DNA from: an uncultured Candidatus Saccharibacteria bacterium
Lineage (GTDB): Bacteria; Patescibacteriota; Minisyncoccia; Phycocordibacterales; UBA9973
Length of the DNA stretch: 64,000 nucleotides
Assembly (NCBI GenBank): GCA_964505155.1
Contig: CAZDGL010000001.1
Location: forward strand, 1,286 to 65,285
Direction of reading: 5' to 3'
Position numbers and translations under genes: made by a program. Below, in pieces: positions 907 to 19,100 of this stretch. The stretch's first letter is position 1; each line of letters opens with the position of its first letter. The notes under the pieces are model-generated. The model searched no databases. It worked only from the letters and a program-made list of their open reading frames with translations, and was not told where the DNA came from.

Positions 907-1087
907 TGACCCACATAGTAAAAATTCTGTCTCTAGGAATGATGCATATAGTCTTCATTCCCGAGGACATCGGTCCCATACTGTTGCGAAAATGAAAACA
1001 CTTCGATGTTTCATTATACCAGTAATCATCACATAGAATCGGTAAGTTACTTTTCCAGTCATCAGCAAGAGTTACGGTAATTCTCAT
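893..1087 (-). CDS. small hypothetical protein
   Basis: 64 aa ORF whose start overlaps the gp43 stop, suggesting translational coupling. Confidence 0.3.
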   Translation of the reverse strand: MRITVTLADDWKSNLPILCDDYWYNETSKCFHFRNSMGPMSSGMKTICIIPRDRIFTMWVNDDE

Positions 1088-3636
1088 TCAAATAGATCCT
1101 CTAATGTATCCACATGTACTGTGTTCCAACCCACTGCGTTAGCAATGATTTGAACAGGTTCTCGATATCCCTTATCGAATTGCGTATGATAATCTATAAG
1201 CTTCTCGATATTCAATTCCTTCGGTAGTTCATCAATAAATCCAATAATATTGGATCGAAGTATATTAGGTTCTTTAAGCCACAGATACTTGATCTTATCG
1301 GATTCCACAATCAATGGGTAGTCTTTGTCAAATCCATTGGACTTGATATAGTTGTTATAGACTATAGCCGCACGAACATGTGCTGGACATCCTGATCTAT
1401 ACAACGTTTTAGAATCCGAATACTTCTCAATATTGTTGCATTGCTTGACGAGTGCTATTTCTTTATAGGAAACATCCTGTTTTGTGATACGAAAGGCTTC
1501 GTCCACACATGCAACAAGCTCTTCCTTCGTACCGGACACCATAATCTCGATAGCCTTCTTCATAGGAGGCTTATAGACTTCTGGTGTAGATCCCTTCTGA
1601 ATCTCCAATCCCATGATTTTCAACTTGGGAGTCTTGTATCGGACACCTTCGTCGTCATATGAATTGATGATGTAGCGCTTCTTCTTCGTCCAGATACCTA
1701 TATCCGCAAGAGATTCTCGCTTCATGTGAAGTGCGCTCTTATAGGAATTCAGATATTCTGCGAGATCGTCGCACGAATCGTCAATGACCTTCTGGAGCTT
1801 TTCCTTACATACCTTATCCATGAAATCGATAATCTTCTGGATATCGGTATCAGGCTTCATCACCTTATCGATCAGAGGCTTCAACGTGATATAGCATGAA
1901 TCGGTGTCTAGGTAAAGAACAAACTTCACGTCCTTCGTTCCGCAGACCTTGTTGAGATATTCGTTGATGACCTTCTCAACCCACAAAATTGAAAGCTTTC
2001 CAGTCACAGTAATTCCTGTTGCCTGTCGGACATCATAGTGACGGAAGTGTTCGTTTCCTGTGGCTCCGTAGGCCGAATTAAGGGATACTTTCAGAGCATT
2101 CTGCAGATTCGAATAGGTGGATGCTTCGTTCTTGAGTTGTTCAATCAACTCAATTGCTGTGGTTTCGTTCAGCTTCTTTTTAGCATCCGACATCATTCCC
2201 TTGAACTTCTTACGGTTTGCATACATTTCTTCCATGATCACCGAAAGAAAGCTCTGCTTGTCACGTCTGAATAAGTGACCGTTAGCTGCTAGAGCCAGAT
2301 TGTACTTTTTGAGAATTGAAGTATCAATCTTTTTGTTGAGAAGATTATCTACAGTGATATCATTGAAAGCCATCCACTCGCGGATCTCTTGTGGATAATC
2401 TGCTGGATCCAGAATGGTATCTGGACCAATATTTGAAAGAATGATTAGGTGTGGATATAGGGAGTCAAAGTCAAAGGACACGATATATTCGTGCTTTCCG
2501 GTAATCGGTTCTTTGACATAGGCACCTTCATACTTTTCCTTCTTCTCTCGGTCCTTCTGAGGTGGAACTACGATGTTGTCGCGCTTCAGACGATTGAAGA
2601 TGATAGCATCCCACATTGTAACCTGCTGGAAAGCGTCCTCGAAATTCACCTTTGCCTGATATGCCAGAGTGAAAACCAGCGACAGCACGTTCAGCTTGGC
2701 ATCCATCCGATCAATCAGACGAACGTCCTGAATGTTGTACTCAATGAATTTCTGGGGATTAGTTAGATGGAGCTTTCGGATACCACCTTCTTCTGTGATT
2801 GGAATCTTTCGTTCGTTTAATTCGATAAAAGCAATCGTGTCCAGCTTGTGATTTGGCTTGGATACTCCACCGGGAACGAACTTCTTATACATATCCAGAT
2901 AGTCGAGAATTGCAATTCCAATTATCTTCTTTGTGTGATAAGATTTGTCAATGGTGATGTGAACTTCTTTTTCGTAAACAATTCCCCATGGTGATAGTGA
3001 GTCAGCTTTCTCCTTACCGAAGAGCTTCTCAATTCTAGCATGTAGGTAGGGAACGTCGAAGCCTGCGATATACCAACCTGTGAGCACATCCGGGTAATCG
3101 GATGTCCATAGATTGAGGAAACGGAGGATTAGATCTGCTTCATCCCGACACTTGTAGTAGATGACATCATCGAACTTGTTTTCGTATTCAACGCACGAGA
3201 ATACATGATATTGTTCGTTCAACTGCAGCGTGATAGCTGTGATTGCTTCACGGGGATTTGCTGCCTTAGGGAATCCATAGACGGATTCTGTTTCAATATC
3301 GATCTTGGCAATCAGGAGCTTCTTGATATCGTACTCGACGTGTTCCTGTGGGAATTGCTCCGATATGAAGGCATATTCGTGCCTCGTATTGCCGAACCAA
3401 TGGAAGTTATCGATCTTCGAATATTCGTCCACGAACTGCTTACAGTCATAGATTGAATCAAAGTGGATTGGTTCGACGGAGCGACCATCAATCGTTTTGA
3501 ATCTAGTTTCTTTATCCGACAAAAGATAAAGGGTAGGAGCGAATCCTACCCTTTCTGAAATCCGTTCTCCATCTTCAATACCTCGATAGAGAATTTTGCC
3601 TTTGTGTAATTGTACGTTGGTGTAAAAATCTGTCAT
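1084..3636 (-). CDS. 43: DNA polymerase, family B (T4 gp43-like)
   Basis: 850 aa; exonuclease motif IAKIDIETE; polymerase motif LYLDTDSCY (YGDTDS-type); collinear with T4 gp43. Confidence 0.95.
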   Translation of the reverse strand: MTDFYTNVQLHKGKILYRGIEDGERISERVGFAPTLYLLSDKETRFKTIDGRSVEPIHFDSIYDCKQFVDEYSKIDNFHWFGNTRHEYAFISEQFPQEHVEYDIKKLLIAKIDIETESVYGFPKAANPREAITAITLQLNEQYHVFSCVEYENKFDDVIYYKCRDEADLILRFLNLWTSDYPDVLTGWYIAGFDVPYLHARIEKLFGKEKADSLSPWGIVYEKEVHITIDKSYHTKKIIGIAILDYLDMYKKFVPGGVSKPNHKLDTIAFIELNERKIPITEEGGIRKLHLTNPQKFIEYNIQDVRLIDRMDAKLNVLSLVFTLAYQAKVNFEDAFQQVTMWDAIIFNRLKRDNIVVPPQKDREKKEKYEGAYVKEPITGKHEYIVSFDFDSLYPHLIILSNIGPDTILDPADYPQEIREWMAFNDITVDNLLNKKIDTSILKKYNLALAANGHLFRRDKQSFLSVIMEEMYANRKKFKGMMSDAKKKLNETTAIELIEQLKNEASTYSNLQNALKVSLNSAYGATGNEHFRHYDVRQATGITVTGKLSILWVEKVINEYLNKVCGTKDVKFVLYLDTDSCYITLKPLIDKVMKPDTDIQKIIDFMDKVCKEKLQKVIDDSCDDLAEYLNSYKSALHMKRESLADIGIWTKKKRYIINSYDDEGVRYKTPKLKIMGLEIQKGSTPEVYKPPMKKAIEIMVSGTKEELVACVDEAFRITKQDVSYKEIALVKQCNNIEKYSDSKTLYRSGCPAHVRAAIVYNNYIKSNGFDKDYPLIVESDKIKYLWLKEPNILRSNIIGFIDELPKELNIEKLIDYHTQFDKGYREPVQIIANAVGWNTVHVDTLEDLFE

Positions 3637-4271: not shown

Positions 4272-4772
4272 TCACACTAAAGAGTGGTCTGGACAGCAGG
4301 GATCGAACCTGCGATCTGAAGTTTCCAAAACTCCCGGATTACCCCTTTCCCATGCCCAGATATATTCATCTATAATAGGTTGAATTTCTTGTTTATATCG
4401 ACTGTGAACATATTGATGATGTGTTGGACACAATGGCACTAAGTTTTCTGGTCGATTGTCACTATGGTCTTCGTTAACGTGATGTGCGGCAACGATCTTT
4501 TCTTCACCGCATATCAAACACTTTTTTCCATGATAAAAGAAACATGTTGATTGATAACTATCTTGCTTCCAATTACCATGTTTGTCTCCTGTTCGAAAAT
4601 ATGTATTTGAACAAGAATAACTACAAGTTACTGATTCACTTGTAAATTCTTTTGAACAAACAGGACATTTTTTAATTCCTTGACATGCTAACAAATGTCT
4701 GTTTAAAGAATTATTAGCAACTAATTTTCTACATTTCTGGCATTCTATTTTTGGATATTTTCTTGGTGACAT
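4272..4772 (-). CDS. HNH endonuclease (putative homing endonuclease) with N-terminal Cys-rich region
   Basis: HNH motif CLICGEEKIVAAHHVNEDHSDNRPENLVPLCPTHH; the C-terminal 29 codons read through tRNA-Pro; a CATAAATA motif plus an SD-containing hairpin lie upstream (4775..4798). Confidence 0.7.
   Translation of the reverse strand: MSPRKYPKIECQKCRKLVANNSLNRHLLACQGIKKCPVCSKEFTSESVTCSYSCSNTYFRTGDKHGNWKQDSYQSTCFFYHGKKCLICGEEKIVAAHHVNEDHSDNRPENLVPLCPTHHQYVHSRYKQEIQPIIDEYIWAWERGNPGVLETSDRRFDPCCPDHSLV
4285..4359 (-). tRNA. tRNA-Pro (anticodon UGG)
   Basis: Manual cloverleaf: acceptor CTGGGCA/TGTCCAG (one G.U), anticodon stem GGAGT/ACTTC, loop TTTGGAA, T-arm GCAGG-TTCGATC-CCTGC, CCA encoded. Confidence 0.7.
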
Positions 4773-5140
4773 TTAGATCCTCTTCGGATCTATTTATGTT
4801 ACCAGTTTGAAATATACTCCAAATCAGGTAGGGACGGCCAGACTCCCCTACACACAGTTATTCTAAAAGCAATATGGAGGTTTTTATGATGGGATAACCT
4901 CCAACCCCAATATATCCAATTTTATTCCAATCTAATCAACAAAGCCTCTCAGTCTTAGCTGAGATTGGATAGGCTATTGTAGCCATTTACGCGCTTCGCG
5001 TTGCGATCTACATGATAGTCTCCATATCTTGATCAAAACCCCCATCCTCTAGTCCGCGTGGGGAGTCGCTTTGGATATGATTATATTTAGCTCCCTTTAG
5101 AGGAGAATGCAAGGGATTTTTTCGATCCCTTGCAGATTTT

Positions 5141-5716
5141 TTAGTCGTGCTCGAATTCCTCGACGTTGATACCTTCACGCGTGACATAAACGGCAACGTG
5201 ATTACCGAACATTGCTTGATAGACATCTTCTGGAATATCCTCAAGCGTCTTCACAAATTCCGAGACCAGATCAATCTCGTCCCGAACTTCCTGTGGAAGA
5301 GCTTCGTATAAAGAAACCTGTTCTTCATACCAAATCAGCCTGTCGCGATTTGCAAAAGCATAGTCCGATGGCTTTCGCATATTGTGTTCGATTGCATCGT
5401 CCTCAAAGATATATGGACGAGGATGGTCACCATACTCTTCGTGCTCTTCGGAATTAACATAGGAATCCCGAACCGCATAGATCCCATTGCGACTAAAATA
5501 GCATTCATCACCGTCATTAAAGTATGGAGTATACTGAGTCCATGTCAGCATATGTAGGTGGGGTGCATACTTGAAGATGTTCTGGAACATATCATGAGCA
5601 GACTTCTGGAATTCTTCCATCAAAGCCTTCTGGGCTTCCTTGAATGAATCCACAAGCTTCTTATGCTCGACACTTACCTTATTCACGATATTGCGTACTT
5701 CACTACTATCAGTCAT
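5141..5716 (-). CDS. hypothetical protein
   Basis: 191 aa ORF; a GC-hairpin with a T tract lies downstream (5100..5140). Confidence 0.4.
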   Translation of the reverse strand: MTDSSEVRNIVNKVSVEHKKLVDSFKEAQKALMEEFQKSAHDMFQNIFKYAPHLHMLTWTQYTPYFNDGDECYFSRNGIYAVRDSYVNSEEHEEYGDHPRPYIFEDDAIEHNMRKPSDYAFANRDRLIWYEEQVSLYEALPQEVRDEIDLVSEFVKTLEDIPEDVYQAMFGNHVAVYVTREGINVEEFEHD

Positions 5717-6122
5717 TTAGTTCTCCATTGAATGTCATAACTTGTTTGAGTTTTTGTTCTCGCTTCGCTTCAGAACCAAGCATCCACGGTTCTATCTGCA
5801 TGGTGCGGAACCATTTTTCCATGGAAGGGATCTCTCCCATGTCTTCCATTACGTGCTGTTCACCCACATCACGTACGGAAACCTTCTTCCCATCGGAATT
5901 GGTGATTACCGTACCGAACACTCGTTCGGCAACAAAGATGCCGAATGCCGAATGAAGGATTGCTCGATGTCGAACGTCGGCAATCACCTGTTTGGTAGAA
6001 TCGAAGAAATCATGAATAGGAAGATAATCTTCAGGGATTCCACCAAATCGTTTTGCTGAACTGCGTGCATGAATGTATGGTTTAATTGTCGTATCTCCTA
6101 TATAATAAGAAAGGGAAACCAC
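5709..6122 (-). CDS. hypothetical protein
   Basis: 137 aa ORF. Confidence 0.4.
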   Translation of the reverse strand: MVSLSYYIGDTTIKPYIHARSSAKRFGGIPEDYLPIHDFFDSTKQVIADVRHRAILHSAFGIFVAERVFGTVITNSDGKKVSVRDVGEQHVMEDMGEIPSMEKWFRTMQIEPWMLGSEAKREQKLKQVMTFNGELND

Positions 6123-6703
6123 TAATGTTTTATACAGTATATAAGATCACCAATAGAGTCAATCAAAAAACATACATAGGAATGCACAAAACTAGTATCA
6201 TCAACGATGATTACATGGGTTCTGGTGAACTTATAAAAAACGCTATTAAGAAATATGGTATAGACAATTTTATCAAAGATGTTCTTTTCATTTATGATAA
6301 TAAAGAAGACATGAAAAATAAAGAAATTGAACTGGTAAACGATGAATACTTAAATAGTGGAATGACTTACAACCTATGTTATGGTGGTCATGGTGGTTCT
6401 AGAAGAAAAGGTGTTATTTTAACTGAAGAGTTAAAAACTAAGATTTCAAAATCCGTAAAGATAGCTATGAACAACCCTACATTAAAAGCTCATCTTTCTA
6501 AAAAAAGACTGGGAAAGAAAGCCAGTATGAAAACTCGACAAAAATCATCTAAGAGTCACAAAACTCTTAGATGGATCTCTGATATTGAAAATCAAAAATC
6601 CATCTTTGTTCATTTTCACGAAGCAGAAAAATTAATCTCTACTGGAAAGTGGATTCAAGGAAGAAAATATGGATTTGATCCAAGACATGGAAAGGATTCA
6701 TGA
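6086..6703 (+). CDS. GIY-YIG homing endonuclease (Seg-like) with NUMOD3 repeats
   Basis: N-terminus MFYTVYKITNRVNQKTYIGMHKT...YMGSG (GIY-YIG); C-terminal NUMOD3-like repeats TEELKTKISKSVK / HLSKKRLGKKASMK. Confidence 0.75.
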   Translation: MSYLLYNKKGKPLMFYTVYKITNRVNQKTYIGMHKTSIINDDYMGSGELIKNAIKKYGIDNFIKDVLFIYDNKEDMKNKEIELVNDEYLNSGMTYNLCYGGHGGSRRKGVILTEELKTKISKSVKIAMNNPTLKAHLSKKRLGKKASMKTRQKSSKSHKTLRWISDIENQKSIFVHFHEAEKLISTGKWIQGRKYGFDPRHGKDS

Positions 6704-6717
6704 TCCGTACTTTCCCA

Positions 6718-6951
6718 TCACATAAAAGAAGCCAACGAAGGCAACACAGCAGCAAAAGAATTCATTTCGTTCTCATTATCAAACTGATAGAGGATCTCTC
6801 GTTGAAAGTTCTCAATACCATGTTTAGCAATAGCACGTTGAAGATGTTTTCCTGAACCCAAGTATCCGTCGTCTAGAATTTCAGTCTGGTGCTTTCCTCG
6901 ATAAACTTTCCTATCTATTAAGTTAGTGGTCTGGTATACAATGTAATGCAT
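6718..6951 (-). pseudogene. truncated GIY-YIG endonuclease (catalytic domain only, 77 aa)
   Basis: The first 60 aa match the 211 and 218 aa paralogs almost exactly (MHYIVYQTTNL...YLGSG...ENFQREILYQFDNE) and then diverge and stop; a convergent GIY-YIG gene lies immediately downstream. Confidence 0.6.
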
Positions 6952-6958
6952 TAAAAAG

Positions 6959-7003
6959 AAATCCCTAGAATCCGTTTACTATTATTTAGGATTCTAGGGA
7001 TTT
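6959..7003 (-). promoter_or_regulatory. 15-bp-stem hairpin with conserved loop CTAAATAATAGTAAAC (late-promoter-like) sequestering the SD
   Basis: aaatccctagaatcc / ggattctagggattt stems; the loop is identical to the 40081..40095 loop; the stem sequence covaries with the paralogous hairpins. Confidence 0.6.
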
Positions 7004-7008
7004 CAATG

Positions 7009-7093
7009 CGGAAGGTTAGGGAGTCGAACCCTAGCTACCTTGCGGTAGGCTTCAGCTTTCCAAGCTGGCACATTACCACTCTGTCAACCTTCC
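7009..7093 (-). tRNA. tRNA-Ser (anticodon GGA), type II
   Basis: Acceptor GGAAGGT/ACCTTCC, 3-bp D-stem, anticodon loop TTGGAAA, long variable arm CTACC-GCAA-GGTAG, T-loop TTCGACT; 27:43 C.A mismatch. Confidence 0.6.
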
Positions 7094-7098
7094 AAAAA

Positions 7099-7186
7099 TG
7101 GAGGAGCATTCGGGGATCGAACCCGCGCTACCTTTCGGTAGACCTTCGCTTAGCAAGCGAGTACATTACCACTCTGTCAATACTCC
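7099..7186 (-). tRNA. tRNA-Ser (anticodon GCU), type II
   Basis: Acceptor GGAGTAT/ATGCTCC, anticodon stem CTCGC/GCGAG, loop TTGCTAA, long variable arm, T-arm GCGGG-TTCGATC-CCCGC, CCA encoded. Confidence 0.7.
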
Positions 7187-7197
7187 AGTGAAGATAT

Positions 7198-7599
7198 TTA
7201 TGCTCCTTCAGCAACCAACAGCGAAGTTTCTGGATTCAGAATCATTCGGGAAAGCTGAACCACAGTAGTCTGACTCTCAGTTGCGAATCCATAGAGTGCA
7301 AGAACTTCCATGAGTGCGGTTGCGAAAGCCTCCGTCGTGGCATCAAAGGCATCGGTGACCAGCTTCGAATCCGGATCCGAATTGCGGATTTCGTCACCAT
7401 CGTAATCCAGCGTCGACAGCTTGTTGAAGACGATAGCATTGCGGATCTGAGTATTCAGATCGCTATCTGGATTGATAATATCCAGAAGGAAGTTGGTATA
7501 AATTCGATCCAGTAGGATGTTCGCACCCTTCTTCACAGTTTCGTGCTGCTCAACCGGAAGGTTTTCGGTCAGTGCTGCAATCAAAGTTTCACGGCTCAT
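7198..7599 (-). CDS. hypothetical protein
   Basis: 133 aa ORF. Confidence 0.4.
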   Translation of the reverse strand: MSRETLIAALTENLPVEQHETVKKGANILLDRIYTNFLLDIINPDSDLNTQIRNAIVFNKLSTLDYDGDEIRNSDPDSKLVTDAFDATTEAFATALMEVLALYGFATESQTTVVQLSRMILNPETSLLVAEGA

Positions 7600-7916
7600 A
7601 TAATCTCTCCATAAACGTTGGTTAGGTGTTTCAAGTGGTGTTTCCCCACCGAAACTGATTCGGTAGGACTTAGACGTCCCTGCAGAATAGGAGCGTCATC
7701 CCATTCCCTGTAGTAGTTGGGAGTGAACAATTCATATCCCGATTTCTCGAAGTCTGCAAATGGTTTGATAGCATCCGCAACACGCAAGAATTGCATGTGA
7801 CTTTCACGCAACATACCGACAAGCTCATAGAGGACGACCTTCTTAGTATCGTCCCCTACATCATGAATAATCGATTCCACGAAATCGGCAAACAGAGGGA
7901 GCTTATTCACATTCAT
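7596..7916 (-). CDS. hypothetical protein
   Basis: 106 aa ORF overlapping the previous stop. Confidence 0.4.
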   Translation of the reverse strand: MNVNKLPLFADFVESIIHDVGDDTKKVVLYELVGMLRESHMQFLRVADAIKPFADFEKSGYELFTPNYYREWDDAPILQGRLSPTESVSVGKHHLKHLTNVYGEII

Positions 7917-8058
7917 GCATCGACGTCCTTGATTGAGGGATTAAACGGAACTTCCATAAGCTCGTTTAGAATCTCTCTATCAAGCTTTCTCAATTAATAG
8001 TCGATCTGTCTGCGAAGATCAAGCAGGAAATCAATAAGCTCGGATCTTTCTTTGTCGT

Positions 8059-8457
8059 TCACTCGTCACTCTCCAAAAAGTATATGAAGTTCTTGTCTGC
8101 GGTGAAATTCGTAATGACGATGTTATAATACCCTTCGTCGGGTACGTCAAACGAAATCTCCTGCACACATCCCTTTTCTAAGGCACCTGCAATAGGTTCA
8201 CTCTCGTCTTCCTCGGTGGACGGATCGTCCATAGGAGCAACAAAAATTCCGAAATTTACTTCATCTTTTGCTTCACAATCTGGTGAAACTAGCGTAAGTG
8301 TGCTATGACTGGAAGGATCGAACTTGTTCAGGAATACAAGAGAAGAATTGGCAAACAACTTCCCACTGACGAACATCGGATATCCCTGCGGTGCAGCGAA
8401 TGCACCGACAGTCAACATACCAACGATAGCTGAACTTAGAACCAGATTTTTAAGCAT
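8059..8457 (-). CDS. secreted or periplasmic protein with signal peptide
   Basis: An internal Met gives MLKNLVLSSAIVGMLTVGAFA (signal-peptide-like) then an acidic mature region; the track ORF extends to 8511. Confidence 0.45.
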   Translation of the reverse strand: MLKNLVLSSAIVGMLTVGAFAAPQGYPMFVSGKLFANSSLVFLNKFDPSSHSTLTLVSPDCEAKDEVNFGIFVAPMDDPSTEEDESEPIAGALEKGCVQEISFDVPDEGYYNIVITNFTADKNFIYFLESDE

Positions 8458-8462
8458 TGTAG

Positions 8463-8657
8463 TCACTCCTTTTTGTTGTAGAACAATTCCGCTCCTGCGA
8501 CAAGCATACATCCGCTTGCTGAGCCAACGATAATAACTGCGAGAATGAATTGGAGGATAGTTTCCATATTTTCCATTACTCCTGATGCGAACGAGGCAAG
8601 ACCAAGCGAAGCAGTAGCAAAGATGAAAGCACGCATAACAAAAAACCTCTCGTTCAT
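8463..8657 (-). CDS. small hydrophobic membrane protein
   Basis: 64 aa ORF with two hydrophobic segments. Confidence 0.3.
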   Translation of the reverse strand: MNERFFVMRAFIFATASLGLASFASGVMENMETILQFILAVIIVGSASGCMLVAGAELFYNKKE

Positions 8658-8791
8658 TTCTGAAGAGAGGTTAGCTCATTTCTACAAAAGAGTCAAGTGG
8701 TTTTTAAAAGAAAAGTGGTGCTTCTAGAAGAAATCGAATCTTCGACTATCCCTTACCAAAGGATTATTTTACCATTAGAACTATAGAAGCA

Positions 8792-8867
8792 TGGTGCTTT
8801 CAATCAGGTTCGAACTGATGGCCTTTGCCGTGTCGAGGCAACGCTCTCCCAACTGAGCTATGAAAGC
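8792..8867 (-). tRNA. tRNA-Val (anticodon GAC)
   Basis: Acceptor GCTTTCA/TGAAAGC, D-arm GCTC-AGTTGGGA-GAGC, anticodon stem TTGCC/GGCAA, loop TCGACAC (C33), T-arm ATCAG-TTCGAAC-CTGAT, CCA encoded. Confidence 0.55.
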
Positions 8868-9214
8868 AAATTTAAGTGATCGGTAACCCCAATAAATTCA
8901 TCCCGATAATCTGGACCGATTGCTGCGCAGGTTAGAGTCGGTACACCATCGAATACGGTTCGACCTTCGTCCACAATAATAGCGGTAATCAATCCACGGT
9001 ACTTTGCTACATCAACAACCTGAAGCAACTCTTCCTCAGATTTGACTTCCAACACTACCTTAGTGAAGGAATCATTATAAAGCCACTCTAAAACGCGAGT
9101 ATCATCCATATTTTCGACGGTTGCCTTCAGTGAAGCATGTGCTCCCTGAGAAACCATCTTTCCTGCTCCCATACCAATATCAGTACGCATCAGGATAATC
9201 TGCTTTAGGTCCAT
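8858..9214 (-). CDS. peptidyl-tRNA hydrolase, PTH2 family
   Basis: IILMRTDIGMGAGKMVSQGAHASLKA matches the PTH2 signature (R.DL.MGKGK..AQ..HA); ATG at 9212..9214 with a GGAAGG SD; the track uses an upstream TTG. Confidence 0.75.
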   Translation of the reverse strand: MDLKQIILMRTDIGMGAGKMVSQGAHASLKATVENMDDTRVLEWLYNDSFTKVVLEVKSEEELLQVVDVAKYRGLITAIIVDEGRTVFDGVPTLTCAAIGPDYRDEFIGVTDHLNLLS

Positions 9215-9231
9215 GACCAACCTTCCAAAAA

Positions 9232-9305
9232 TGGTACCCAGTGAGGGAATCGAACCCCCGATGTCGCGGTGTAAACGCGATGCTTTCCCATTTAGCTAAC
9301 CGGGC
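9232..9305 (-). tRNA. tRNA-Val (anticodon UAC)
   Basis: Acceptor GCCCGGT/ACTGGGT (two G.U), anticodon stem TCGCG/CGCGA, loop TTTACAC, T-arm GGGGG-TTCGATT-CCCTC, CCA encoded. Confidence 0.65.
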
Positions 9306-9444
9306 ATAATAAAATCCGCTGCAGTGAAATAAGGCCGGTGCTTATTCCATACTATAACGAGTATGTCTGTTTAGCGACCGTGTCAAGGCATCGTTATATA
9401 CCAAGGATCCAAACGGCACAGAACTACAACTATCTGGTGGAGCT

Positions 9445-10080
9445 TCATCCCTTTCGGAACGAAACCCCTAACTTTCGACCTTTATACCATCCTTCTGGTA
9501 TCTGGTCAAGCTTTTTTATCTTACGATTCTCTGTTCCATTAGTGATCCACATAGATCCGAACTGAGAATTTTTCTCACCTTGTTGGTGAAGGGAATTAGC
9601 TTCACCTATTTTACGCTTATGATCATCTGAAAGATGTGACCCTGTAGAATCATATCCTAAATTTTTTTTAGCCCTATCAGCTAAAGCTTGTCTATGTGCA
9701 GAATTTGATTGTACTTTTAGTTTTGTGGCAATAATACTCTTGGCACGTTCTTCTTCAGTAAATCCAAATCTACGAGGTGTTAAATTATTTTGGTTGATAT
9801 ACCCAAATCCACCTTTACCACCGGGACAAATATTATAAGTGTTTGATAAATTACAAAAATCTTCAGTTACCAATTCAGCTTCCTTAGAGATCATATCGGC
9901 TTCATTATCGAATTGGTAGAGAATCTCTCGCTGGAAGTTCTCAATACCATATTTTTTAATAGCACGTCTGATCTGATTCCCAGACCCTAAGTACCTATCA
10001 TTCAGATCAGAAGTCTGATGCTTACCACGATAGATTTTACCATTAATCAGGTTTGTAGTCTGGTAGACGATATAATGCAT
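9445..10080 (-). CDS. GIY-YIG homing endonuclease (Seg-like), paralog family member
   Basis: MHYIVYQTTNLINGKIYRGKHQT...YLGSG motif; 211 aa; about 70% identical at the N-terminus to 39404..40060 and 6718..6951. Confidence 0.8.
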   Translation of the reverse strand: MHYIVYQTTNLINGKIYRGKHQTSDLNDRYLGSGNQIRRAIKKYGIENFQREILYQFDNEADMISKEAELVTEDFCNLSNTYNICPGGKGGFGYINQNNLTPRRFGFTEEERAKSIIATKLKVQSNSAHRQALADRAKKNLGYDSTGSHLSDDHKRKIGEANSLHQQGEKNSQFGSMWITNGTENRKIKKLDQIPEGWYKGRKLGVSFRKG

Positions 10081-10085
10081 AAAAG

Positions 10086-10132
10086 GGAAACTCCAGAACG
10101 CTTTTGCTATTATTTAGCGTTCTGGAGTTTCC
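10086..10132 (-). promoter_or_regulatory. 16-bp-stem hairpin with CTAAATAATAGCAAAA loop upstream of the GIY-YIG gene
   Basis: ggaaactccagaacgc / gcgttctggagtttcc; loop TTTTGCTATTATTTA; the SD lies in the 3' stem half. Confidence 0.6.
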
Positions 10133-10136
10133 GAAG

Positions 10137-10208
10137 TGGACTGATGGGGGATCGAACCCCAACTACCGCATTGCAAGTGCAGTGTGCTCCCATTATCACT
10201 ATCAGCCC
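10137..10208 (-). tRNA. tRNA-Ala (anticodon UGC)
   Basis: Acceptor GGGCTGA/TCAGTCC (G3.U70), anticodon stem CTGCA/TGCGG, loop CTTGCAA, T-arm TGGGG-TTCGATC-CCCCA; CCA not encoded. Confidence 0.7.
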
Positions 10209-10223
10209 AATAACTAACGAATT

Positions 10224-10297
10224 TGGTACCTGAGCCGCGAATCGAACGCGAGTGGACGGTTCCACAGACCGTCGCTTTACCACTAAGCTACTCAGGC
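10224..10297 (-). tRNA. tRNA-His (anticodon GUG), alphaproteobacterial type (no G-1, G1:U72, A73)
   Basis: Acceptor GCCTGAG/CTCAGGT with G1.U72, discriminator A, position -1 is U; anticodon stem ACGGT/ACCGT, loop CTGTGGA; T-arm TCGCG-TTCGATT-CGCGG; CCA encoded. Confidence 0.7.
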
Positions 10298-10327
10298 ATA
10301 ATCTCTATTACTTATATATGACACTTT

Positions 10328-10582
10328 TCACTCAGTGTCAACGGAAATCTTTTCGAGTGTGGATTTTCTTTTCACTTTGAAGAGTGGGGTAAGTTTGTAG
10401 ACGTAAACCTCATCCTCTTCAAGAAAATCGTCAAGATCGATATTGACGGGATCCTTCACGTCAAAAACGTACATATCCATATTTGATCCATCAGATCCAT
10501 CCAGATCAACCAGAGGATCGATGCCGGTCATTACCACATAGAAATCCTTGATTGAAGGACTTGGTTTCTTCTTAGCTGCCAT
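10328..10582 (-). CDS. hypothetical acidic protein
   Basis: Internal start MAAKKKPSPS with an AAGGA SD; the track's upstream start would lie inside the terminator hairpin. Confidence 0.4.
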   Translation of the reverse strand: MAAKKKPSPSIKDFYVVMTGIDPLVDLDGSDGSNMDMYVFDVKDPVNIDLDDFLEEDEVYVYKLTPLFKVKRKSTLEKISVDTE

Positions 10583-10593
10583 TTCTTTTTCCT

Positions 10594-10625
10594 TTGAAAA
10601 ATGGAGGAGCATTGTCTGCTCCTCC
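10594..10625 (-). terminator. rho-independent terminator (minus strand)
   Basis: GGAGGAGCA-gacaa-TGCTCCTCC followed by ATTTTTC, directly after the SPFH gene stop. Confidence 0.6.
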
Positions 10626-10642
10626 ATGTTTATAGTTTTATC

Positions 10643-11533
10643 TCACTGAGGAGTAGGTGTCAGATTCAGAAATGGTACTGCTGAACCCGGAATCATTTGT
10701 GCAGGAAGCTTTCCGTCCCACCGCTCAGCTTGCGTGAGTCGGATTAGATCCGGACTCTGCTTGAGAGCATCACCCTTGGCACGAATAGCATCAGCGTCTG
10801 CTTCACCTCGGATCCGAACAGCTTCTGCTGAGGCTTTGGCTTCAGCTAGTTGTGAGTCAGCACGTGCGTTTGCTTGCGTCACGGCAATCTCAGCATTGAT
10901 CTTTTCACGTTCGGCATTCTGACGGATCTTCTGAACTTCAACCTCGGCCATCATTCGGGCTTCGATAGACTGCTCATACTCGTCAGAAAAGTCGATATTC
11001 TCAATCTGAACCGAGATAATACTAACTGGACCTTCAACTGCAGCAATGATTGCTTGTTCAATATCAGTATTCAACTTAGCTCGATCCTGAACAATCGTTA
11101 CCGCATTATATCGACCGAACACGTTCTTGGTCTCTTCGTAAACCTTTGGATCAACCAAACGAAGGATCATATTGGATTCAGACCCATACTGTCGATAAAC
11201 CTCGTCTACAAAATCCGGTGCGATAACATAGTTCAATGAAAGTCGGACAGTTGCAGTCTGCTGGTCCTTAGAATATGCTGCAAGTCCACCAGTATACGTT
11301 CCGTCAGAATTCTGTGTTGCGTATGTTCGCACATTATCCCGAACCGAGATATCAACCACGTCATCTAGGAATGGAAGCTTGAATCCCAACCCCGGATTTG
11401 CTACACCCTGAAAAGCACCATTTCGAAGAATAACACCTCGATCACCCTCGTTTACTGTATAGAAACTTCCAAAAAACGTTGAAAGTCCTACGAGAGCAAC
11501 AATAAGAGCTAGTACACCTATTACATATTTCAC
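10643..11533 (-). CDS. SPFH / band-7 (HflK/C, prohibitin-like) membrane protein
   Basis: N-terminal TM then YTVNEGDRGVILRNGAFQGVANPGLGFKLPF...VRDNVRTYATQ (SPFH core) and an Ala/Glu-rich coiled-coil C-terminus; GTG start overlaps the upstream micro-ORF stop. Confidence 0.75.
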   Translation of the reverse strand: MKYVIGVLALIVALVGLSTFFGSFYTVNEGDRGVILRNGAFQGVANPGLGFKLPFLDDVVDISVRDNVRTYATQNSDGTYTGGLAAYSKDQQTATVRLSLNYVIAPDFVDEVYRQYGSESNMILRLVDPKVYEETKNVFGRYNAVTIVQDRAKLNTDIEQAIIAAVEGPVSIISVQIENIDFSDEYEQSIEARMMAEVEVQKIRQNAEREKINAEIAVTQANARADSQLAEAKASAEAVRIRGEADADAIRAKGDALKQSPDLIRLTQAERWDGKLPAQMIPGSAVPFLNLTPTPQ

Positions 11534-11646
11534 TTAGTTTCTCCTTTAGAAGTCTTGAAACGAATATTATCAATACACCACCATATTCCCATCCACAAGA
11601 CGAATGCGATTACGATGATGCCTACTGCTAGAAATAGCTTAGTCAT
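11530..11646 (-). CDS. small membrane protein (38 aa), translationally coupled
   Basis: MTKLFLAVGIIVIAFVLWMGIWWCIDNIRFKTSKGETK; ATGA and GTGA overlaps with the neighbouring genes. Confidence 0.3.
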   Translation of the reverse strand: MTKLFLAVGIIVIAFVLWMGIWWCIDNIRFKTSKGETK

Positions 11647-11725
11647 CTTTTGCGTCCCTTCCACACTGAAGAATAATCCAAATCATTGTTCCAATCAAAG
11701 CCACTGAGGCAAGAAAATAAAGCAT
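11639..11725 (-). CDS. small membrane protein (28 aa), translationally coupled
   Basis: MLYFLASVALIGTMIWIILQCGRDAKDD; its start overlaps the phosphatase stop (TAATG). Confidence 0.3.
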   Translation of the reverse strand: MLYFLASVALIGTMIWIILQCGRDAKDD

Positions 11726-12444
11726 TATGCCATCCACTCCGCATTTGTTTTAAATTTATCCATGAAGTTAAACTTCGAATCAATCTGTACAGTATTGTAC
11801 ATCATCAACTCAAACTCTTCATCTATCACAAGTGCGGACAATAGTCCACCGAAAACGCATGACGTATCGAGATTGATACGATTCTTTCTCCATGTGATAT
11901 CATCCTGTGGAGTATGTCCATGAACAACCTTTTTATCAAATGGATGAGTGTAGTCTAAAAACTTATCGCGGATCCAAAGTGAATCATTCCAGTTCTGGTC
12001 ATTCAGGGAATACGAAGGATTGACTCCAGCATGAACGAAGAAGTGCTTTCTGGTTTCATAATACTGACGAGTATTAGTCAGAAACTTCCAATGTCCTGCA
12101 GGAAGATAATCATACCCTATTGTGGTATAATCAAACCCATAAGACTTGTAGCACTCGGGATAATACTGATAATGACCAATAGATCCTTCGCGCATGGCTT
12201 CCATAAACATATCTTCGTGATTACCACGTAGGAAAACGCATTCTTGACGCATACCATACGCAATAAGTTTATCGATCACTCCCTTGGAATCAGGACCACG
12301 ATCAATGTAATCACCCAAAAAGATGCGGACGTGTTCTGGAAATTGCTTATCCAGAGCATCCAGCATTTCGTTCAGTTCGTTCAGACATCCGTGAATGTCT
12401 CCGATAGCGATATATTTACTCACTAGATTTCTCCGCACATGCAA
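11725..12444 (-). CDS. Ser/Thr protein phosphatase, PPP / metallophosphoesterase family (lambda-PPase-like)
   Basis: GDIHGC, GDYIDRGPDS and GNHE motifs in order. Confidence 0.85.
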   Translation of the reverse strand: MHVRRNLVSKYIAIGDIHGCLNELNEMLDALDKQFPEHVRIFLGDYIDRGPDSKGVIDKLIAYGMRQECVFLRGNHEDMFMEAMREGSIGHYQYYPECYKSYGFDYTTIGYDYLPAGHWKFLTNTRQYYETRKHFFVHAGVNPSYSLNDQNWNDSLWIRDKFLDYTHPFDKKVVHGHTPQDDITWRKNRINLDTSCVFGGLLSALVIDEEFELMMYNTVQIDSKFNFMDKFKTNAEWMA

Positions 12445-12486
12445 AAATATTAAAAAGATAAATAGCTCTATAAGGAGCTATCAAAA

Positions 12487-13131
12487 ATGTACTGTACATA
12501 TCTTACCATTTATTCAGGAAACTTATTGCCACCATTTTATATCGGGTATACTTCTATTTCAAGAATAGAATCTGGGTATAACGGAACAGTAACTTCACAA
12601 CGTTACGGAACAATATGGAAATCAGAACGAAAAGTCAATAAACATCTGTTCAAAACCATCATATTAAAACAATTCCATAACAGAAAAGAAGCATTATTAG
12701 CAGAATGTCAATTACATGAAAAATTAAAAGTTGATAAAAATCCTTTATATATCAACCAATCTTGTCAAAAATCAGACGGATTTACTTGTATAGGACACTC
12801 AAAGGAATCACGTAAAAGAATGTCAGAAACCAGAAAAGGTCGTAAAGGTCCAAATCTCGGTCGAGTATTAACTGAAGAATGGAAAGAAAATATCTCCAAA
12901 GGAAATAAAGGAAAACCAAAATCTGAAACTACAAAGAAAAAAATGTCGGAATCATTTAAAACTAGAAGATGGTGGACTAACGGTATTATTGATAAATTTA
13001 CGTCAGAATACCTCGGTGAAGGATGGAGACGTGGCATGAGAAAAAATCCTAATAGAAAAGGATTTCTTCCCGGTAATCAATATCGATTCAATCCAAAAAA
13101 CCATGATATTCCTGCCAAGCATGATAACTGA
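12487..13131 (+). CDS. GIY-YIG homing endonuclease (Seg-like) with NUMOD3 repeats
   Basis: YCTYLTIYSGNLLPPFYIGYT...; repeats SKESRKRMSETRKGRKG / TEEWKENISKGNKGK; preceded by GATAAATAG plus an SD-containing hairpin. Confidence 0.7.
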   Translation: MYCTYLTIYSGNLLPPFYIGYTSISRIESGYNGTVTSQRYGTIWKSERKVNKHLFKTIILKQFHNRKEALLAECQLHEKLKVDKNPLYINQSCQKSDGFTCIGHSKESRKRMSETRKGRKGPNLGRVLTEEWKENISKGNKGKPKSETTKKKMSESFKTRRWWTNGIIDKFTSEYLGEGWRRGMRKNPNRKGFLPGNQYRFNPKNHDIPAKHDN

Positions 13132-13936
13132 TGTATTCAACAACTCTATGTTTGTCCATTGCGTATAATCCTGCGCAGGCCAGTGAGTTAAGTTCTACGA
13201 TTTTTGGACCGTTCTCCGTCAATGCGACATCGCAGATATAGACAGAATCCGGTTGCCAGATATGGTTAGCCATCTTCCATGCCATATCCATACAGTCCTT
13301 ATCCCAATCATGTCGGATGTCAAGGACATTATCCCATCGGTATTCGGATCCATCGACCACTTCACGATTGACAATCAAAAACCGAAATTCGGCTTTGATG
13401 TTCTTTGCTGAGGAAATCAGGCATAGAGTCTCATCCTGAACACTGGTCAATTGCATGGAGGACGATAGCTCGTCTGCCACATTATCAATAGTGATAACAA
13501 ATCCAGTGAAAGTCTTGAACCCGGATACCGGACGAATGAACACGCAATCTGATTTGAAAATATCAAATACTCGAAGTGGATTATCTCTCACTTCTTTGAA
13601 AGGAAGAATGATGTAGTCCGCATTGAGTAGAGAATTCTTAGGAAGATTTGGGTAATAGAAATTGCAATTCATGTTCTGACCGATGCCGTAGGCACCCGGT
13701 GTGAAACCCATCTTGCATTTGGATACGTATCCATGTGTGCCATAAAGCACAACAATGTCTGCAGAAGTATATGGACCGTAATCCTGAACCTCTGCAAACG
13801 GAATGTATTTAGTTTCATGAAGGGAGCATCCGTGAGCTTTGATAGCTCCTAGAAGATCTCCTACCGTGGATCTAGAATCCAGAATATGAGTGTCAACTGC
13901 CCACGCTACTTGGTTTGGTGTATACCGCATTTTCAT
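13088..13936 (-). CDS. ATP-grasp-fold protein (putative peptide or amine ligase)
   Basis: C-terminal VYICDVALTENGPKIVELNSLACAG resembles the ATP-grasp E.N..PG signature; 282 aa. Confidence 0.45.
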   Translation of the reverse strand: MKMRYTPNQVAWAVDTHILDSRSTVGDLLGAIKAHGCSLHETKYIPFAEVQDYGPYTSADIVVLYGTHGYVSKCKMGFTPGAYGIGQNMNCNFYYPNLPKNSLLNADYIILPFKEVRDNPLRVFDIFKSDCVFIRPVSGFKTFTGFVITIDNVADELSSSMQLTSVQDETLCLISSAKNIKAEFRFLIVNREVVDGSEYRWDNVLDIRHDWDKDCMDMAWKMANHIWQPDSVYICDVALTENGPKIVELNSLACAGLYAMDKHRVVEYISYHAWQEYHGFLD

Positions 13937-14192
13937 ATTCTTCCATAGCTAATCTGGCTTCGTATGCACTAACGTGTACGTCAATTTCCATTTCTAGATC
14001 GAGTCCACATCGGTATCCTGTTTCATAATGGTTCCATACCAACCACGATCCTACGAATTTTCGGACTTGTTCTTTTCTCAAAACAAATCCGAAAATCTTC
14101 CACTCAGGAATCCGAAAGGTGACCAGTTTATCTCGATAAGCTCTGGTTCTATCTGCATCGAGATCTAGATAATGAACATCGATTAGTTCCAT
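13893..14192 (-). CDS. hypothetical protein
   Basis: 99 aa ORF. Confidence 0.35.
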   Translation of the reverse strand: MELIDVHYLDLDADRTRAYRDKLVTFRIPEWKIFGFVLRKEQVRKFVGSWLVWNHYETGYRCGLDLEMEIDVHVSAYEARLAMEEYENAVYTKPSSVGS

Positions 14193-14686
14193 TAGAAATC
14201 ACCATGATAGATGAGAGTATCTACCCGAACCGACTCAAGTGAGTCAAAGTATCCTACCCATGCACCACAGTAGATGGTCTGACCATCGAAATCGAAAGAC
14301 CACTTATCGATGTCCTGCTTCATGGAACGATAGCGAGTCTCGATCTCCGTCTTGAGACGATAGGCATTTTCAAGATTATCAAAGACCATGATAAACTCAG
14401 GGTTCCCGGTAGAATGACCGAAAGAGTCACCCGTCGAATAAGTCAACCACACAAGAATGTATGGCTTCCCAACTTCGAGATCGATATTCTTGTGGGTAGC
14501 TACCAGAGTACCACCTCTTCCAGAAGTGATGTATTCGAGATCCACCGTTCCGTGGTCGGATCTCCATTCACCCCACTCTTCACCAGAGTGCCAATATGAA
14601 CCACCATGAAGGTGATACTTCACATAATAGAGCTTCTCGTCTGGCTTCTGAATCTTCTTCTTGCCCATCAGATTCTCACTTCTCAA
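14192..14686 (-). CDS. hypothetical protein
   Basis: 164 aa ORF. Confidence 0.35.
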   Translation of the reverse strand: MRSENLMGKKKIQKPDEKLYYVKYHLHGGSYWHSGEEWGEWRSDHGTVDLEYITSGRGGTLVATHKNIDLEVGKPYILVWLTYSTGDSFGHSTGNPEFIMVFDNLENAYRLKTEIETRYRSMKQDIDKWSFDFDGQTIYCGAWVGYFDSLESVRVDTLIYHGDF

Positions 14687-15050
14687 ACTTGGATTTCAGC
14701 TTCAGATACGTTGCATACTCTTCCTGCTTCTGTTTGTCAAGACGAGCCTTATCTTCTTTCTTCTTTTGTTTTCGAGCCTCAGCATCCCGGTTCGATTCAA
14801 TAGCTATCCGAAGCTCATACTCATAATCGTTCTCTAAACGATATCCTTCCAGATAGCATTTAAGCTCTGCTGGATCATCATAATATCCAGTTTCAACATC
14901 AGCAGCAAAAATCATATCTTCAGTATGAATGTCCCATTCTGTAGATTTTGATTGAATGAGATCGATTAGCTCGGACGCATTGAGATAGACACATCCTGTC
15001 TTACCAAGGTCGTGCCTAAAATGCTTGTTTTCTCTTTTTTGATTTACCAT
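14676..15050 (-). CDS. hypothetical protein with basic, charged C-terminal tail
   Basis: 124 aa ORF. Confidence 0.35.
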   Translation of the reverse strand: MVNQKRENKHFRHDLGKTGCVYLNASELIDLIQSKSTEWDIHTEDMIFAADVETGYYDDPAELKCYLEGYRLENDYEYELRIAIESNRDAEARKQKKKEDKARLDKQKQEEYATYLKLKSKFEK

Positions 15051-15075
15051 TTGAGATCATCATAAATGAGGAGAA

Positions 15076-15151
15076 TGGTGCCCCTAGCAGGCTTCGAACC
15101 CACGACCTTCTACTTACAAGGTAGCTGCTCTACCAACTGAGCTATAGAGGC
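15076..15151 (-). tRNA. tRNA-Thr (anticodon UGU)
   Basis: Acceptor GCCTCTA/TAGGGGC, D-arm GCTC-AGTTGGTA-GAGC, anticodon loop CTTGTAA (27:43 G.A mismatch), T-loop TTCGAAG, CCA encoded. Confidence 0.7.
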
Positions 15152-15161
15152 ATTATTTGGT

Positions 15162-15425
15162 TTAAACGTATACCGTGATTGTCTTTGAAACAGGAAAGAC
15201 TTCCTTGACTTCAATTTCATCCGGTTCATGTTCGAAAGGTTGTTCGTCTTGATATTCCGTAGCACCCACCGAATAGGTAGTCTTATAGAATTTGCCTTCA
15301 TGTTCGAAAACAACTTCATGCTTGACAGACCACCGATCAGTATCGATAATCTCGTCTGAGATCAACTCAAGATCCACGTCACCCCAACAGACTAATTCCT
15401 GTAGATCATTCTTTTTGAATAACAT
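15162..15425 (-). CDS. hypothetical protein
   Basis: 87 aa ORF. Confidence 0.35.
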   Translation of the reverse strand: MLFKKNDLQELVCWGDVDLELISDEIIDTDRWSVKHEVVFEHEGKFYKTTYSVGATEYQDEQPFEHEPDEIEVKEVFPVSKTITVYV

Positions 15426-15450
15426 TCAATTACCTTTCATAATATGAAAA

Positions 15451-15526
15451 TGGAGGAAGCGGTGGGAATCGAACCCACTTAGCGACTGTTTTGCAGACAG
15501 CGACGTATCCAACCCGTCCCGCAACC
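15451..15526 (-). tRNA. tRNA-Cys (anticodon GCA), acceptor stem with two U.U mismatches
   Basis: Anticodon stem GCTGT/ACAGT, loop CTGCAAA, T-arm GTGGG-TTCGATT-CCCAC, discriminator U plus CCA; acceptor GGTTGCG/CGCTTCC pairs 5 of 7. Confidence 0.55.
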
Positions 15527-17505: not shown

Positions 17506-17973
17506 TTAAGTTTCGTTGGTCTGATGGTGGGTATACTTGAATGAACGATCCCATTTTGTATATGCTTGGGATAGAATGTAGTTCTCGTCCAGATCGTATT
17601 CGAAATACATCTTGTTGAGAATTCCTAGAACGTCTCCCAACTCAATTTCTAGGAGACGTCGATTTGTGGTCTGTCTTGGATCATCAGGATGATAGGATTC
17701 GTATCCGTGTCGCTTGATCTTCTGAGCAATCATAATTACTTCAGACAATTCTTCCACAAGCATATCGAGCCGCTCTGTTTCAGCAGGAGTCAATCCGTTG
17801 AAGTGGACTTGTGATTCAGCTTCCAAGGCTCGTTCTTTCCAATATTCTGCATCCGTGTTTTCTTTGAACGGATAAAATCTTCCAGCACCATCGGCAATCT
17901 TCACGCTAGCTACTGAAGCCGTGTTCCTAGAAGCCACTTCAGCAGCACCTCTCAATCCAGCATTATCCAACAT
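17506..17973 (-). CDS. MazG-like all-alpha NTP pyrophosphohydrolase (T4 dCTPase gp56-like?)
   Basis: EExxE-type helix LVEELSEVIMIAQKIKRHG and E...LGDVL motifs. Confidence 0.5.
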   Translation of the reverse strand: MLDNAGLRGAAEVASRNTASVASVKIADGAGRFYPFKENTDAEYWKERALEAESQVHFNGLTPAETERLDMLVEELSEVIMIAQKIKRHGYESYHPDDPRQTTNRRLLEIELGDVLGILNKMYFEYDLDENYILSQAYTKWDRSFKYTHHQTNET

Positions 17974-18947: not shown

Positions 18948-19100
18948 GTGATTACTTCTTCCGAATAAAAGTGCTAATAATGCCTACTGCTAATATGAAT
19001 AGAAAAATCCAAAGAAATGGAAAGACCAACGGATAATGATGAGCCAACTGTTCACCAAATCTAGCACCCAAACATACTGTTGATAGGTTGCAGGGATCCA

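Follow-up and report, generated by a model that had tools for sequence, protein, structure and literature searches.

We report that a 64-kb stretch of DNA (64,000 nucleotides (nt) of contig CAZDGL010000001.1; hereafter 'the window'), part of the genome of a T4-like myovirus, carries a histidine transfer RNA gene, tRNA-His(GUG), whose acceptor end matches the rare bacterial histidine identity rule that dispenses with a guanosine at position -1 (G-1). The gene lies on the minus strand at 10224-10297 and combines T at -1, a G1·U72 wobble pair, the discriminator A73 and an encoded CCA. It belongs to a family of compact viral tRNA-His genes, and the gene content of the window links it to phages of Alphaproteobacteria. 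From these observations we consider it likely that the gene specifies a functional phage tRNA-His under the G-1-less identity rule, charged in the infected cell by a host histidyl-tRNA synthetase (HisRS) of the divergent type, with an alphaproteobacterium as the likeliest host. On this account the gene is an unsurprising adaptation to the host, with the phage tRNA following the rules of the cell it infects, and it calls for no new mechanism.

Anatomy of the gene and the published G-1-less system

ARAGORN calls the gene with anticodon gtg, and the Rfam tRNA model matches 10227-10297(-) with 62.0 bits (E = 4.9e-11; gathering score 29), with all stem pairs standard and no non-canonical pair flagged. 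Read 5′ to 3′ on the minus strand, the sequence begins after the T at -1 (10298), where no G-1 is encoded, with the 5′ acceptor strand GCCTGAG and TA, followed by the D-arm (GCTT, AGTGGTA, AAGC), a G, the anticodon arm (ACGGT, CTGTGGA, ACCGT), the variable loop CCAC, the T-arm (TCGCG, TTCGATT, CGCGG), the 3′ acceptor strand CTCAGGT, A73 and the encoded CCA (10224-10226). The acceptor stem consists of G1·U72, C2:G71, C3:G70, U4:A69, G5:C68, A6:U67 and G7:C66, where U72 (10228) forms a wobble pair with G1 (10297) and precedes the discriminator A73 (10227). The anticodon GUG occupies 10263-10265 and is followed by G37 at 10262 in the loop CUGUGGA. The build is compact, with a 7-nt D-loop (AGUGGUA), a 4-nt variable loop and 71 nt ahead of the CCA. 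A first-pass annotation of the window had listed U at -1, G1·U72, A73, GUG and encoded CCA, and ARAGORN, Rfam and a direct reading of the sequence return every one of these elements in a cloverleaf that has neither G at -1 nor C73; the strand and the compactness of the gene were absent from it.

Two groups of bacterial tRNA-His have been described, the usual one with an encoded G-1, G1:C72 and C73, and a rare G-1-less one in some Alphaproteobacteria (Yuan et al. 2011, PMC3064791). The E. coli-type HisRS requires G-1. The divergent HisRS of Caulobacter crescentus charges a G-1-less tRNA-His transcript fully, and adding G-1 to its substrate leaves charging no better and raises the Michaelis constant (Km). 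This enzyme reads the anticodon as its major determinant, anticodon mutants losing 91- to 1000-fold, together with U72 (a 91-fold loss for U72C) and, more weakly, A73 (a 3-fold loss for A73C; PMC3064791). The clade with this trait comprises Rhodobacteraceae, Rhizobiales, Caulobacterales, Hyphomonadaceae and 7 of 8 SAR11 genomes, and the canonical form is kept by Rhodospirillales, Sphingomonadales and Rickettsiales; the motif IIb loop of HisRS contains Gly in the divergent type and Gln in the canonical type (Amrine et al. 2014, PMC3937112).

The window gene shares every acceptor-end and anticodon feature of the G-1-less group, namely the missing G-1, G1·U72, C3:G70 (which appears as C3-G71 in print; PMC3064791), A73, GUG with G37, and CCA. 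It departs from the group in its D-loop, which has 7 nt and no U20a; a 9-nt D-loop with U20a is reported in every member of the alphaproteobacterial family (PMC3064791), and the 57 alphaproteobacterial genes of our genome scan, described below, have D-loops of 9 nt (54/57) or 10 nt (3/57). Its variable loop is also shorter (4 nt versus 5), it has 71 nt before the CCA rather than 74, and it is phage-encoded and known from sequence alone. The short D-loop is the chief structural ground for caution. In the E. coli backbone, D-loop size acts as an antideterminant, and shortening the loop in the C. crescentus backbone has a small effect (PMC3064791).

Other kinds of tRNA-His are less similar at the acceptor end. 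Canonical bacterial tRNA-His, as in E. coli and in canonical phage copies, shares the GUG anticodon and the cloverleaf with the window gene, but its G-1 is paired to C73 and serves as the main determinant, its first pair is G1:C72 and RNase P cuts it at -1. Eukaryotic cytosolic tRNA-His likewise has A73 and a G-1 that is not encoded in the gene; there, however, G-1 is added by Thg1 and needed by HisRS, and G1·U72 is not a eukaryotic feature.

A compact family of viral tRNA-His genes

A pattern search of IMG/VR for the compact architecture yielded 56 usable genes, to which the window gene adds a 57th. The G1·U72/A73 end is found in 26 of the 57, where the base at -1 is T (19), C (5) or A (2) and never G. 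The other classes are G1·U72/G73 (2 genes), C1:G72/A73 (6), G1:C72/C73 (about 8) and G1:C72/A73 (5, of which 4 have G at -1), with 10 genes unplaced. The recurrence of G1·U72 and A73 without G-1 in 25 further IMG/VR tRNA-His genes built to the same 71-nt plan argues that the combination did not arise by chance in the window gene.

Members of this family (for example L002, L216, L239, L356 and L365) share with the window gene a 7-nt D-loop ending in GGTA, the 4-nt variable loop and the TTCGATT T-loop, and the 5′ acceptor strand of L002, GCCTGAG, is identical. Their stem sequences differ from those of the window gene, with compensatory changes. We aligned the window gene with other distinct G1·U72 members, 18 sequences in all; the cloverleaf fitted 99.7% of cells, and compensatory change was present in 16 of 21 pairs, where shuffles averaged 11.1 and slid registers gave 5 to 8. 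The invariance of pair 1:72 in this alignment follows from how the set was selected and carries no weight; that of C2:G71 does not follow from selection. When the loop constraints are matched, viral genes ending in U72-A73 number about 12 and those ending in C72-C73 about 33, so the U72-A73 form is a sizeable minority of viral tRNA-His genes rather than a rarity.

Cultured phages provide no close counterpart at the nucleotide level. Within the phage records, blastn with the window tRNA-His gave no match, blastn with the compact viral consensus found no cultured phage in which the compact G-1-less form is closely matched, and blastn with alphaproteobacterial tRNA-His gave generic tRNA matches only. 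On the IMG/VR contigs with similar tRNA-His genes, GIY-YIG endonucleases are the only flanking genes homologous to the window, and no DUF1127 motif was found in these flanks.

Genes that point to a probable alphaproteobacterial host

The protein genes of the window supply evidence on the host that is independent of the tRNA. A 44-amino-acid DUF1127 protein, a host-lineage marker, is encoded at 29510-29644 on the minus strand (Pfam PF06568, E = 6.2e-12), as the first-pass annotation had said. A tblastn search with this protein against 50,697 phage records matched 24 records, and all 24 are phages of Alphaproteobacteria with Rhodobacterales or Rhizobiales hosts. They include roseophages CRP-7 (the best match, 64%), SIO1 and CRP-403, phages of Celeribacter and Lentibacter, Sinorhizobium phages phiM7, phiM12, phiM19, phiN3 and Phosso, and Agrobacterium phage Atu_ph07. 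An SPFH/Band-7 protein gene (Pfam; 10643-11533, minus strand) adjoins the tRNA-His gene, and 13 of its top 20 phage matches are Rhizobium or Agrobacterium phages, in a family that also occurs in enterobacterial jumbo phages. The best match of a DUF6915 protein is Sinorhizobium phage phiM12/phiN3 (57%), the family being otherwise broad, and the phage homologues of a PF18909 protein infect mixed hosts. Because the DUF1127, SPFH and DUF6915 matches point the same way when taken together, the phage probably infects an alphaproteobacterium. The most likely host clade is the one with divergent HisRS, that is, Rhizobiales, Rhodobacterales, Caulobacterales and relatives, or most SAR11. A rhizobial or roseobacter-type host would have a much GC-richer base composition than the phage, as is the case with Atu_ph07.

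Occurrence of the acceptor end among genomes

We searched a set of one genome per species for tRNA-His-like genes with a U72-A73 end, using the pattern CTGTGGA ... GTTCGANTC ... N10 TA, and recovered at least 120 loci. Among the matches listed, 87 tRNA-His genes that are intact and have all seven acceptor positions paired form the analysed set; the sample is arbitrary, its proportions are not population estimates and its taxon labels come from record titles only. Alphaproteobacterial titles account for 57 of the 87 listed genes. Every one of these 57 has G1·U72, A73 and an encoded CCA, and 54 have T at -1. Position 3:70 is A3:U70 more often than C3:G70 (50/57, in a sample mostly of Xanthobacteraceae), so C3:G70 is not universal.

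Genes with the same G1·U72/A73 end also appear under non-alphaproteobacterial titles (26 of the 87 listed): Planctomycetota (8), Acidobacteriota (3), Bacteroidota (3), WOR-3 (2), Zixibacteria (2), Stahlbacteria, Nitrospirota and Polyangia (1 each) and unclassified (5). The loci L132 and L209 (Bacteroidetes titles) and L159 (Acidobacteriota) are chromosomal tRNA genes that stand alone, on contigs of Mb scale or on complete chromosomes; further loci of this kind of title are L094, L101, L119, L124, L129, L130, L136, L142, L149, L150, L158, L162, L167, L175, L178, L193, L199 and L211. Most of the other-phylum genes lack G at -1, which is present in 3 of the 8 listed Planctomycetota genes. The published descriptions cited here confine the G-1-less form to one alphaproteobacterial clade (PMC3064791, PMC3937112, PMC3245924). 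If verified, its occurrence outside Alphaproteobacteria would revise the stated distribution of the identity switch, and it is worth a proper census.

These genes bring in a different host for the same biochemistry: the phage tRNA could be charged independently of G-1 in another lineage, for example Planctomycetota, Bacteroidota or Acidobacteriota. The chromosomal setting of L132, L209 and L159 agrees with such a host, and the identity of the window tRNA to the other-phylum genes (0.70-0.73) is as high as to the alphaproteobacterial ones. The labels that place these genes in other phyla, however, are the record titles themselves, and the protein genes point elsewhere, the DUF1127 homologues occurring in phages of Alphaproteobacteria only and the top SPFH and DUF6915 matches being rhizobial phages. 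The 3′ end offers a further distinction. CCA is encoded in the window gene, as in all listed alphaproteobacterial genes, and in none of the listed Planctomycetota, Bacteroidota, WOR-3 or Zixibacteria genes, a pattern that favours Alphaproteobacteria. We therefore regard a host from another phylum as unlikely. A search of the genome collection for a tRNA-His with an acceptor stem identical to that of the window gene gave 0 matches, so no host or prophage copy was found.

Cultured-phage precedents and possible post-transcriptional addition of G-1

The tRNA-His genes of three cultured phages can be compared with the host rule. Agrobacterium (Rhizobiales) phage Atu_ph07 (NC_042013.1) has U-1, G1·U72, C2:G71, A73 and CCA, with an 8-nt D-loop and a 4-nt variable loop. 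Sinorhizobium phage phiM12 has U-1, A73 and CCA with a reversed wobble, U1·G72, and Brevundimonas phage Kikimora (L255 7815-7890) has U-1, C1:G72 and C73. G-1 is encoded by none of the three. Since Atu_ph07 alone follows the rule exactly, the agreement of phage tRNA-His with the host rule is real but loose.

Atu_ph07 is thus the precedent for the window gene, with which its tRNA-His shares U-1, the first two pairs, A73, CCA and the length of the variable loop. It is also a low-GC phage with many tRNAs and has a homologue of the window's DUF1127 protein. The two tRNA genes are nevertheless only 62% identical, that of Atu_ph07 differing in its D-loop, in U3:A70 and in the T-loop TTCAATT, and Atu_ph07 is a jumbo phage of an unrelated lineage that encodes a Thg1-like protein. 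As a separate observation, a C1:G72 first pair without G-1 is present in Kikimora (with C73) and in IMG/VR loci such as L349, L355, L361 and L366 (with A73). The C1:G72 tRNA-His is apparently a further non-canonical acceptor-end type, without description in the cited tRNA-His literature.

Thg1-like tRNA-His guanylyltransferases are annotated in both Atu_ph07 (gp227, PMC6102473) and phiM12 (gp001, L391 55-837). The two phages thus carry a Thg1-like gene beside an A73 tRNA-His without G-1, even though the HisRS of their host clade needs no G-1. This arrangement suggests a second alternative, in which a Thg1-like 3′-5′ nucleotidyltransferase, supplied by the host or by the part of the phage genome outside the window, adds G-1 after transcription, and charging depends on that G-1, as with the eukaryotic G-1 opposite A73. 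About 87 kb of the phage genome could hold such an enzyme. Within the 64-kb window no homologue was found: none of the 39 open reading frames (ORFs) of at least 200 amino acids matched the Pfam Thg1 family, and tblastn with the phiM12 Thg1 gave no match better than E = 4.3. Biochemical results also run counter to G-1 addition, since bacterial/archaeal-type Thg1-like enzymes prefer templated addition and A73 would template U, not G (PMC3245924), and since the C. crescentus enzyme gains no charging from G-1 and binds such a substrate with a raised Km (PMC3064791). Addition of G-1 would furthermore leave U72 without an explanation. Taken together, these points make post-transcriptional G-1 addition very unlikely.

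Weighing the evidence

Several observations weigh against charging by a divergent alphaproteobacterial HisRS. The D-loop of the window tRNA-His is not the 9-nt, U20a-containing loop of the described family, and the functional weight of this feature is uncertain. Phages of the same host clade do not always follow the rule, as Kikimora (C1:G72/C73) and phiM12 (U1·G72/A73) illustrate. The acceptor-end set appears not to be exclusive to Alphaproteobacteria, and because genes titled with other phyla have the same set, the signature alone would be no proof of an alphaproteobacterial host. The identity of the window tRNA-His to alphaproteobacterial, planctomycete and Bacteroidota tRNA-His genes lies between 0.61 and 0.73 and does not discriminate among hosts. 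The window comprises 64 kb of a phage genome of about 151 kb, so that some 87 kb are out of view. Lastly, core-gene similarity is low for every isolate, with identities of at most 63% for the major capsid protein, 48% for the portal and 42% for the DNA polymerase, and phylogeny therefore gives no host. The nearest capsid matches among isolates are the Methylophilales (OM43) phage Melnitz, Pelagibacter phages Mosig and HTVC008M, Stenotrophomonas phage DLP_6 and some cyanophages, and the best capsid, portal and polymerase matches taken as a whole are spread across phages of OM43, SAR11, cyanobacteria and Stenotrophomonas; the best IMG/VR capsid match reaches 72%. The first-pass annotation had spoken of an alphaproteobacterial identity set, and of a tRNA tuned to an alphaproteobacterial host. 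The first description fits the acceptor end and the anticodon (PMC3064791) and goes too far in the exclusivity it assumes and in the D-loop; the second gains from the DUF1127, SPFH and DUF6915 links and from the Atu_ph07 precedent, but the set occurs in other phyla too.

The capsid match to Melnitz bears on a third alternative, namely that the tRNA-His came from a previous host or another phage as a relic or hitch-hiker and would be silent on the present host. Melnitz itself has alphaproteobacterial-like tRNAs and a transfer-messenger RNA, for which such an origin has been proposed, yet infects a Methylophilales host (PMC9004378). Homing endonucleases, which favour the exchange of genes, are abundant in the tRNA region of the window, and one viral contig (L243, below) carries both identity types side by side. 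Against a relic, the gene is intact and among the best-scoring window tRNAs with Rfam, whereas an unchargeable tRNA would be expected to decay, and the protein genes, several of them independently, likewise lead to phages of Alphaproteobacteria. We give little credence to a silent relic.

The contig in question (IMGVR_UViG_3300033074_001890) has three adjacent tRNA-His genes at L243 10461-10695, one with U-1, G1·U72, A73 and CCA and two with the canonical G-1, G1:C72, C73 and CCA; this phage may be equipped for both HisRS types. A broader and more speculative idea is that the acceptor end of phage tRNA-His is a swappable identity module that tracks the HisRS type of the host. We entertain it because the compact 71-nt scaffold has at least four end types (G1·U72/A73 without G-1; G-1 with G1:C72/C73; G-1 with G1:C72/A73; and C1:G72/A73), because L243 holds two of them side by side and because chromosomes under the labels Bacteroidota, Acidobacteriota, Planctomycetota and further phyla have the G-1-less type. 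We hold this idea tentatively, as one that may well prove wrong. If it is true, G-1-independent histidylation is wider in bacteria than a single alphaproteobacterial clade, and the tRNA-His end type becomes a simple host-lineage marker for uncultured phages.

Returning to the favoured reading, a G-1-less phage tRNA charged by a divergent host HisRS, we infer the following course of events. The tRNA-His would be transcribed together with the neighbouring minus-strand tRNAs. The closest of these, tRNA-Ala(UGC) (10136-10208, minus strand; ARAGORN and Rfam), lies 15 nt downstream and is probably co-transcribed with it; no sigma-70-like promoter was found near the tRNA-His gene. Host RNase P would then cleave at the ordinary +1 site, since the tRNA lacks the G-1:C73 pair that would shift cleavage and since U-1 is the leader base in most of the phage's tRNAs. 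Indeed, 10 of the 12 window tRNAs have T at -1, so U at -1 is not specific to tRNA-His and has no special meaning, which is consistent with ordinary cleavage at +1. The idea that U-1 pairs with A73 and makes RNase P retain the extra base was rejected, since U-1 with A73 is the ordinary state in most window tRNAs and in the alphaproteobacterial genes. CCA addition would be unneeded, CCA being encoded. The mature tRNA, starting at G1, would be histidylated by a divergent-type host HisRS that reads GUG, U72 and A73 rather than G-1, and the charged tRNA would supplement the decoding of CAU and CAC during infection by this 42%-GC phage. In the 35 large ORFs counted, His is encoded by CAU 149 times and by CAC 92 times.

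The end type of the tRNA-His is one of the few features that narrow the host range of an unclassified T4-like phage without a close cultured relative. What narrows the range is a biochemical need, namely that the tRNA suit the host's HisRS, and not similarity, so the end type could be taken up in schemes that predict hosts for uncultured phages. In addition, the phage copies are natural G-1-less variants with shorter D-loops and variable loops, and could show which identity elements are truly needed.

The tRNA region and the surrounding phage genome

The window has 12 tRNA genes by ARAGORN, every one on the minus strand, with GC contents of 0.36-0.58; nine of them encode CCA. Ten lie in a loose tRNA region (4285-15526, minus strand), mixed with GIY-YIG/NUMOD3 homing-endonuclease genes and a PTH2-type peptidyl-tRNA hydrolase gene (8858-9220, minus strand), the last of which fits a translation-support module. 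The tRNA-Val(UAC) at 9232-9305(-) also combines G1·U72, A73 and CCA (GCCCGGT at the 5′ end and ACTGGGT, A, CCA at the 3′ end), so tRNA-His is not the only tRNA of this phage with G1·U72. Three ARAGORN calls fall below the Rfam gathering score, all on the minus strand: Val(GAC) at 8792-8867, Cys(GCA) at 15451-15526 and Gly(GCC) at 39356-39429, the last being overlapped by the 3′ end of an endonuclease ORF (39404-40060). The GIY-YIG (SegE-like)/NUMOD3 genes are at 6086-6703(+), 6718-6951(-), 9445-10080(-), 12487-13131(+), 33777-34349(-), 39404-40060(-) and 54678-55298(-). The window's homing-endonuclease genes are many and several are paralogous; most adjoin tRNA genes, and one lies between head genes.

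The structural and replication genes are all on the minus strand and are those of a T4-like myovirus. They include the Gp23 major capsid protein (55405-56724), the Gp20 portal (60298-61953) and a family-B DNA polymerase (1084-3636), together with prohead scaffold, prohead protease, clamp and clamp-loader proteins, RegA, UvsW and a gp46-like ATPase. A megablast search with 8 kb around the tRNA-His gene found nothing in the 50,697 phage records. The GC content of the window is 0.42. The first-pass annotation had taken 55-60% GC cassettes as a supporting clue; none was found, the richest 2-kb window having 0.463 GC and the richest 300-nt window 0.557 (40351-40800), and high-GC cassettes were rejected as a sign of recent transfer from a host.

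The two methyltransferases that had been described as CcrM-like do exist, as paralogous PF01555 enzymes with the motif DLPYG, one of 257 amino acids and of the beta-class N6/N4 DNA type (40928-41701, minus strand) and one of 248 amino acids (43946-44692, minus strand). They are not orthologues of CcrM, the adenine methyltransferase that acts on GANTC under cell-cycle control: they score 71 and 63 bits versus an NCBIfam CcrM cut-off of 830, match over about 70 residues and have DLPYG, not DPPY. The best solved relative of both is M.MboIIA. A depletion of GANTC sites was considered and rejected, with 306 sites in the window versus a rough expectation of 237. The PF18909-domain protein (dATP/dGTP diphosphohydrolase N-terminal domain) is encoded at 36677-37507(-); we take it to be MazZ-like, as in phages with aminoadenine genomes, and no PurZ-like gene was seen in the window. 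A sugar/glycan cassette at 17973-29513(-) comprises an NAD-dependent epimerase/dehydratase, an NDP-sugar dehydrogenase, a HAD phosphatase-nucleotidyltransferase fusion, a GT10 fucosyltransferase and a GT2 glycosyltransferase. The nearest non-identical homologues of the NDP-sugar dehydrogenase are just 44-46% identical, save one 83% match on a short contig.

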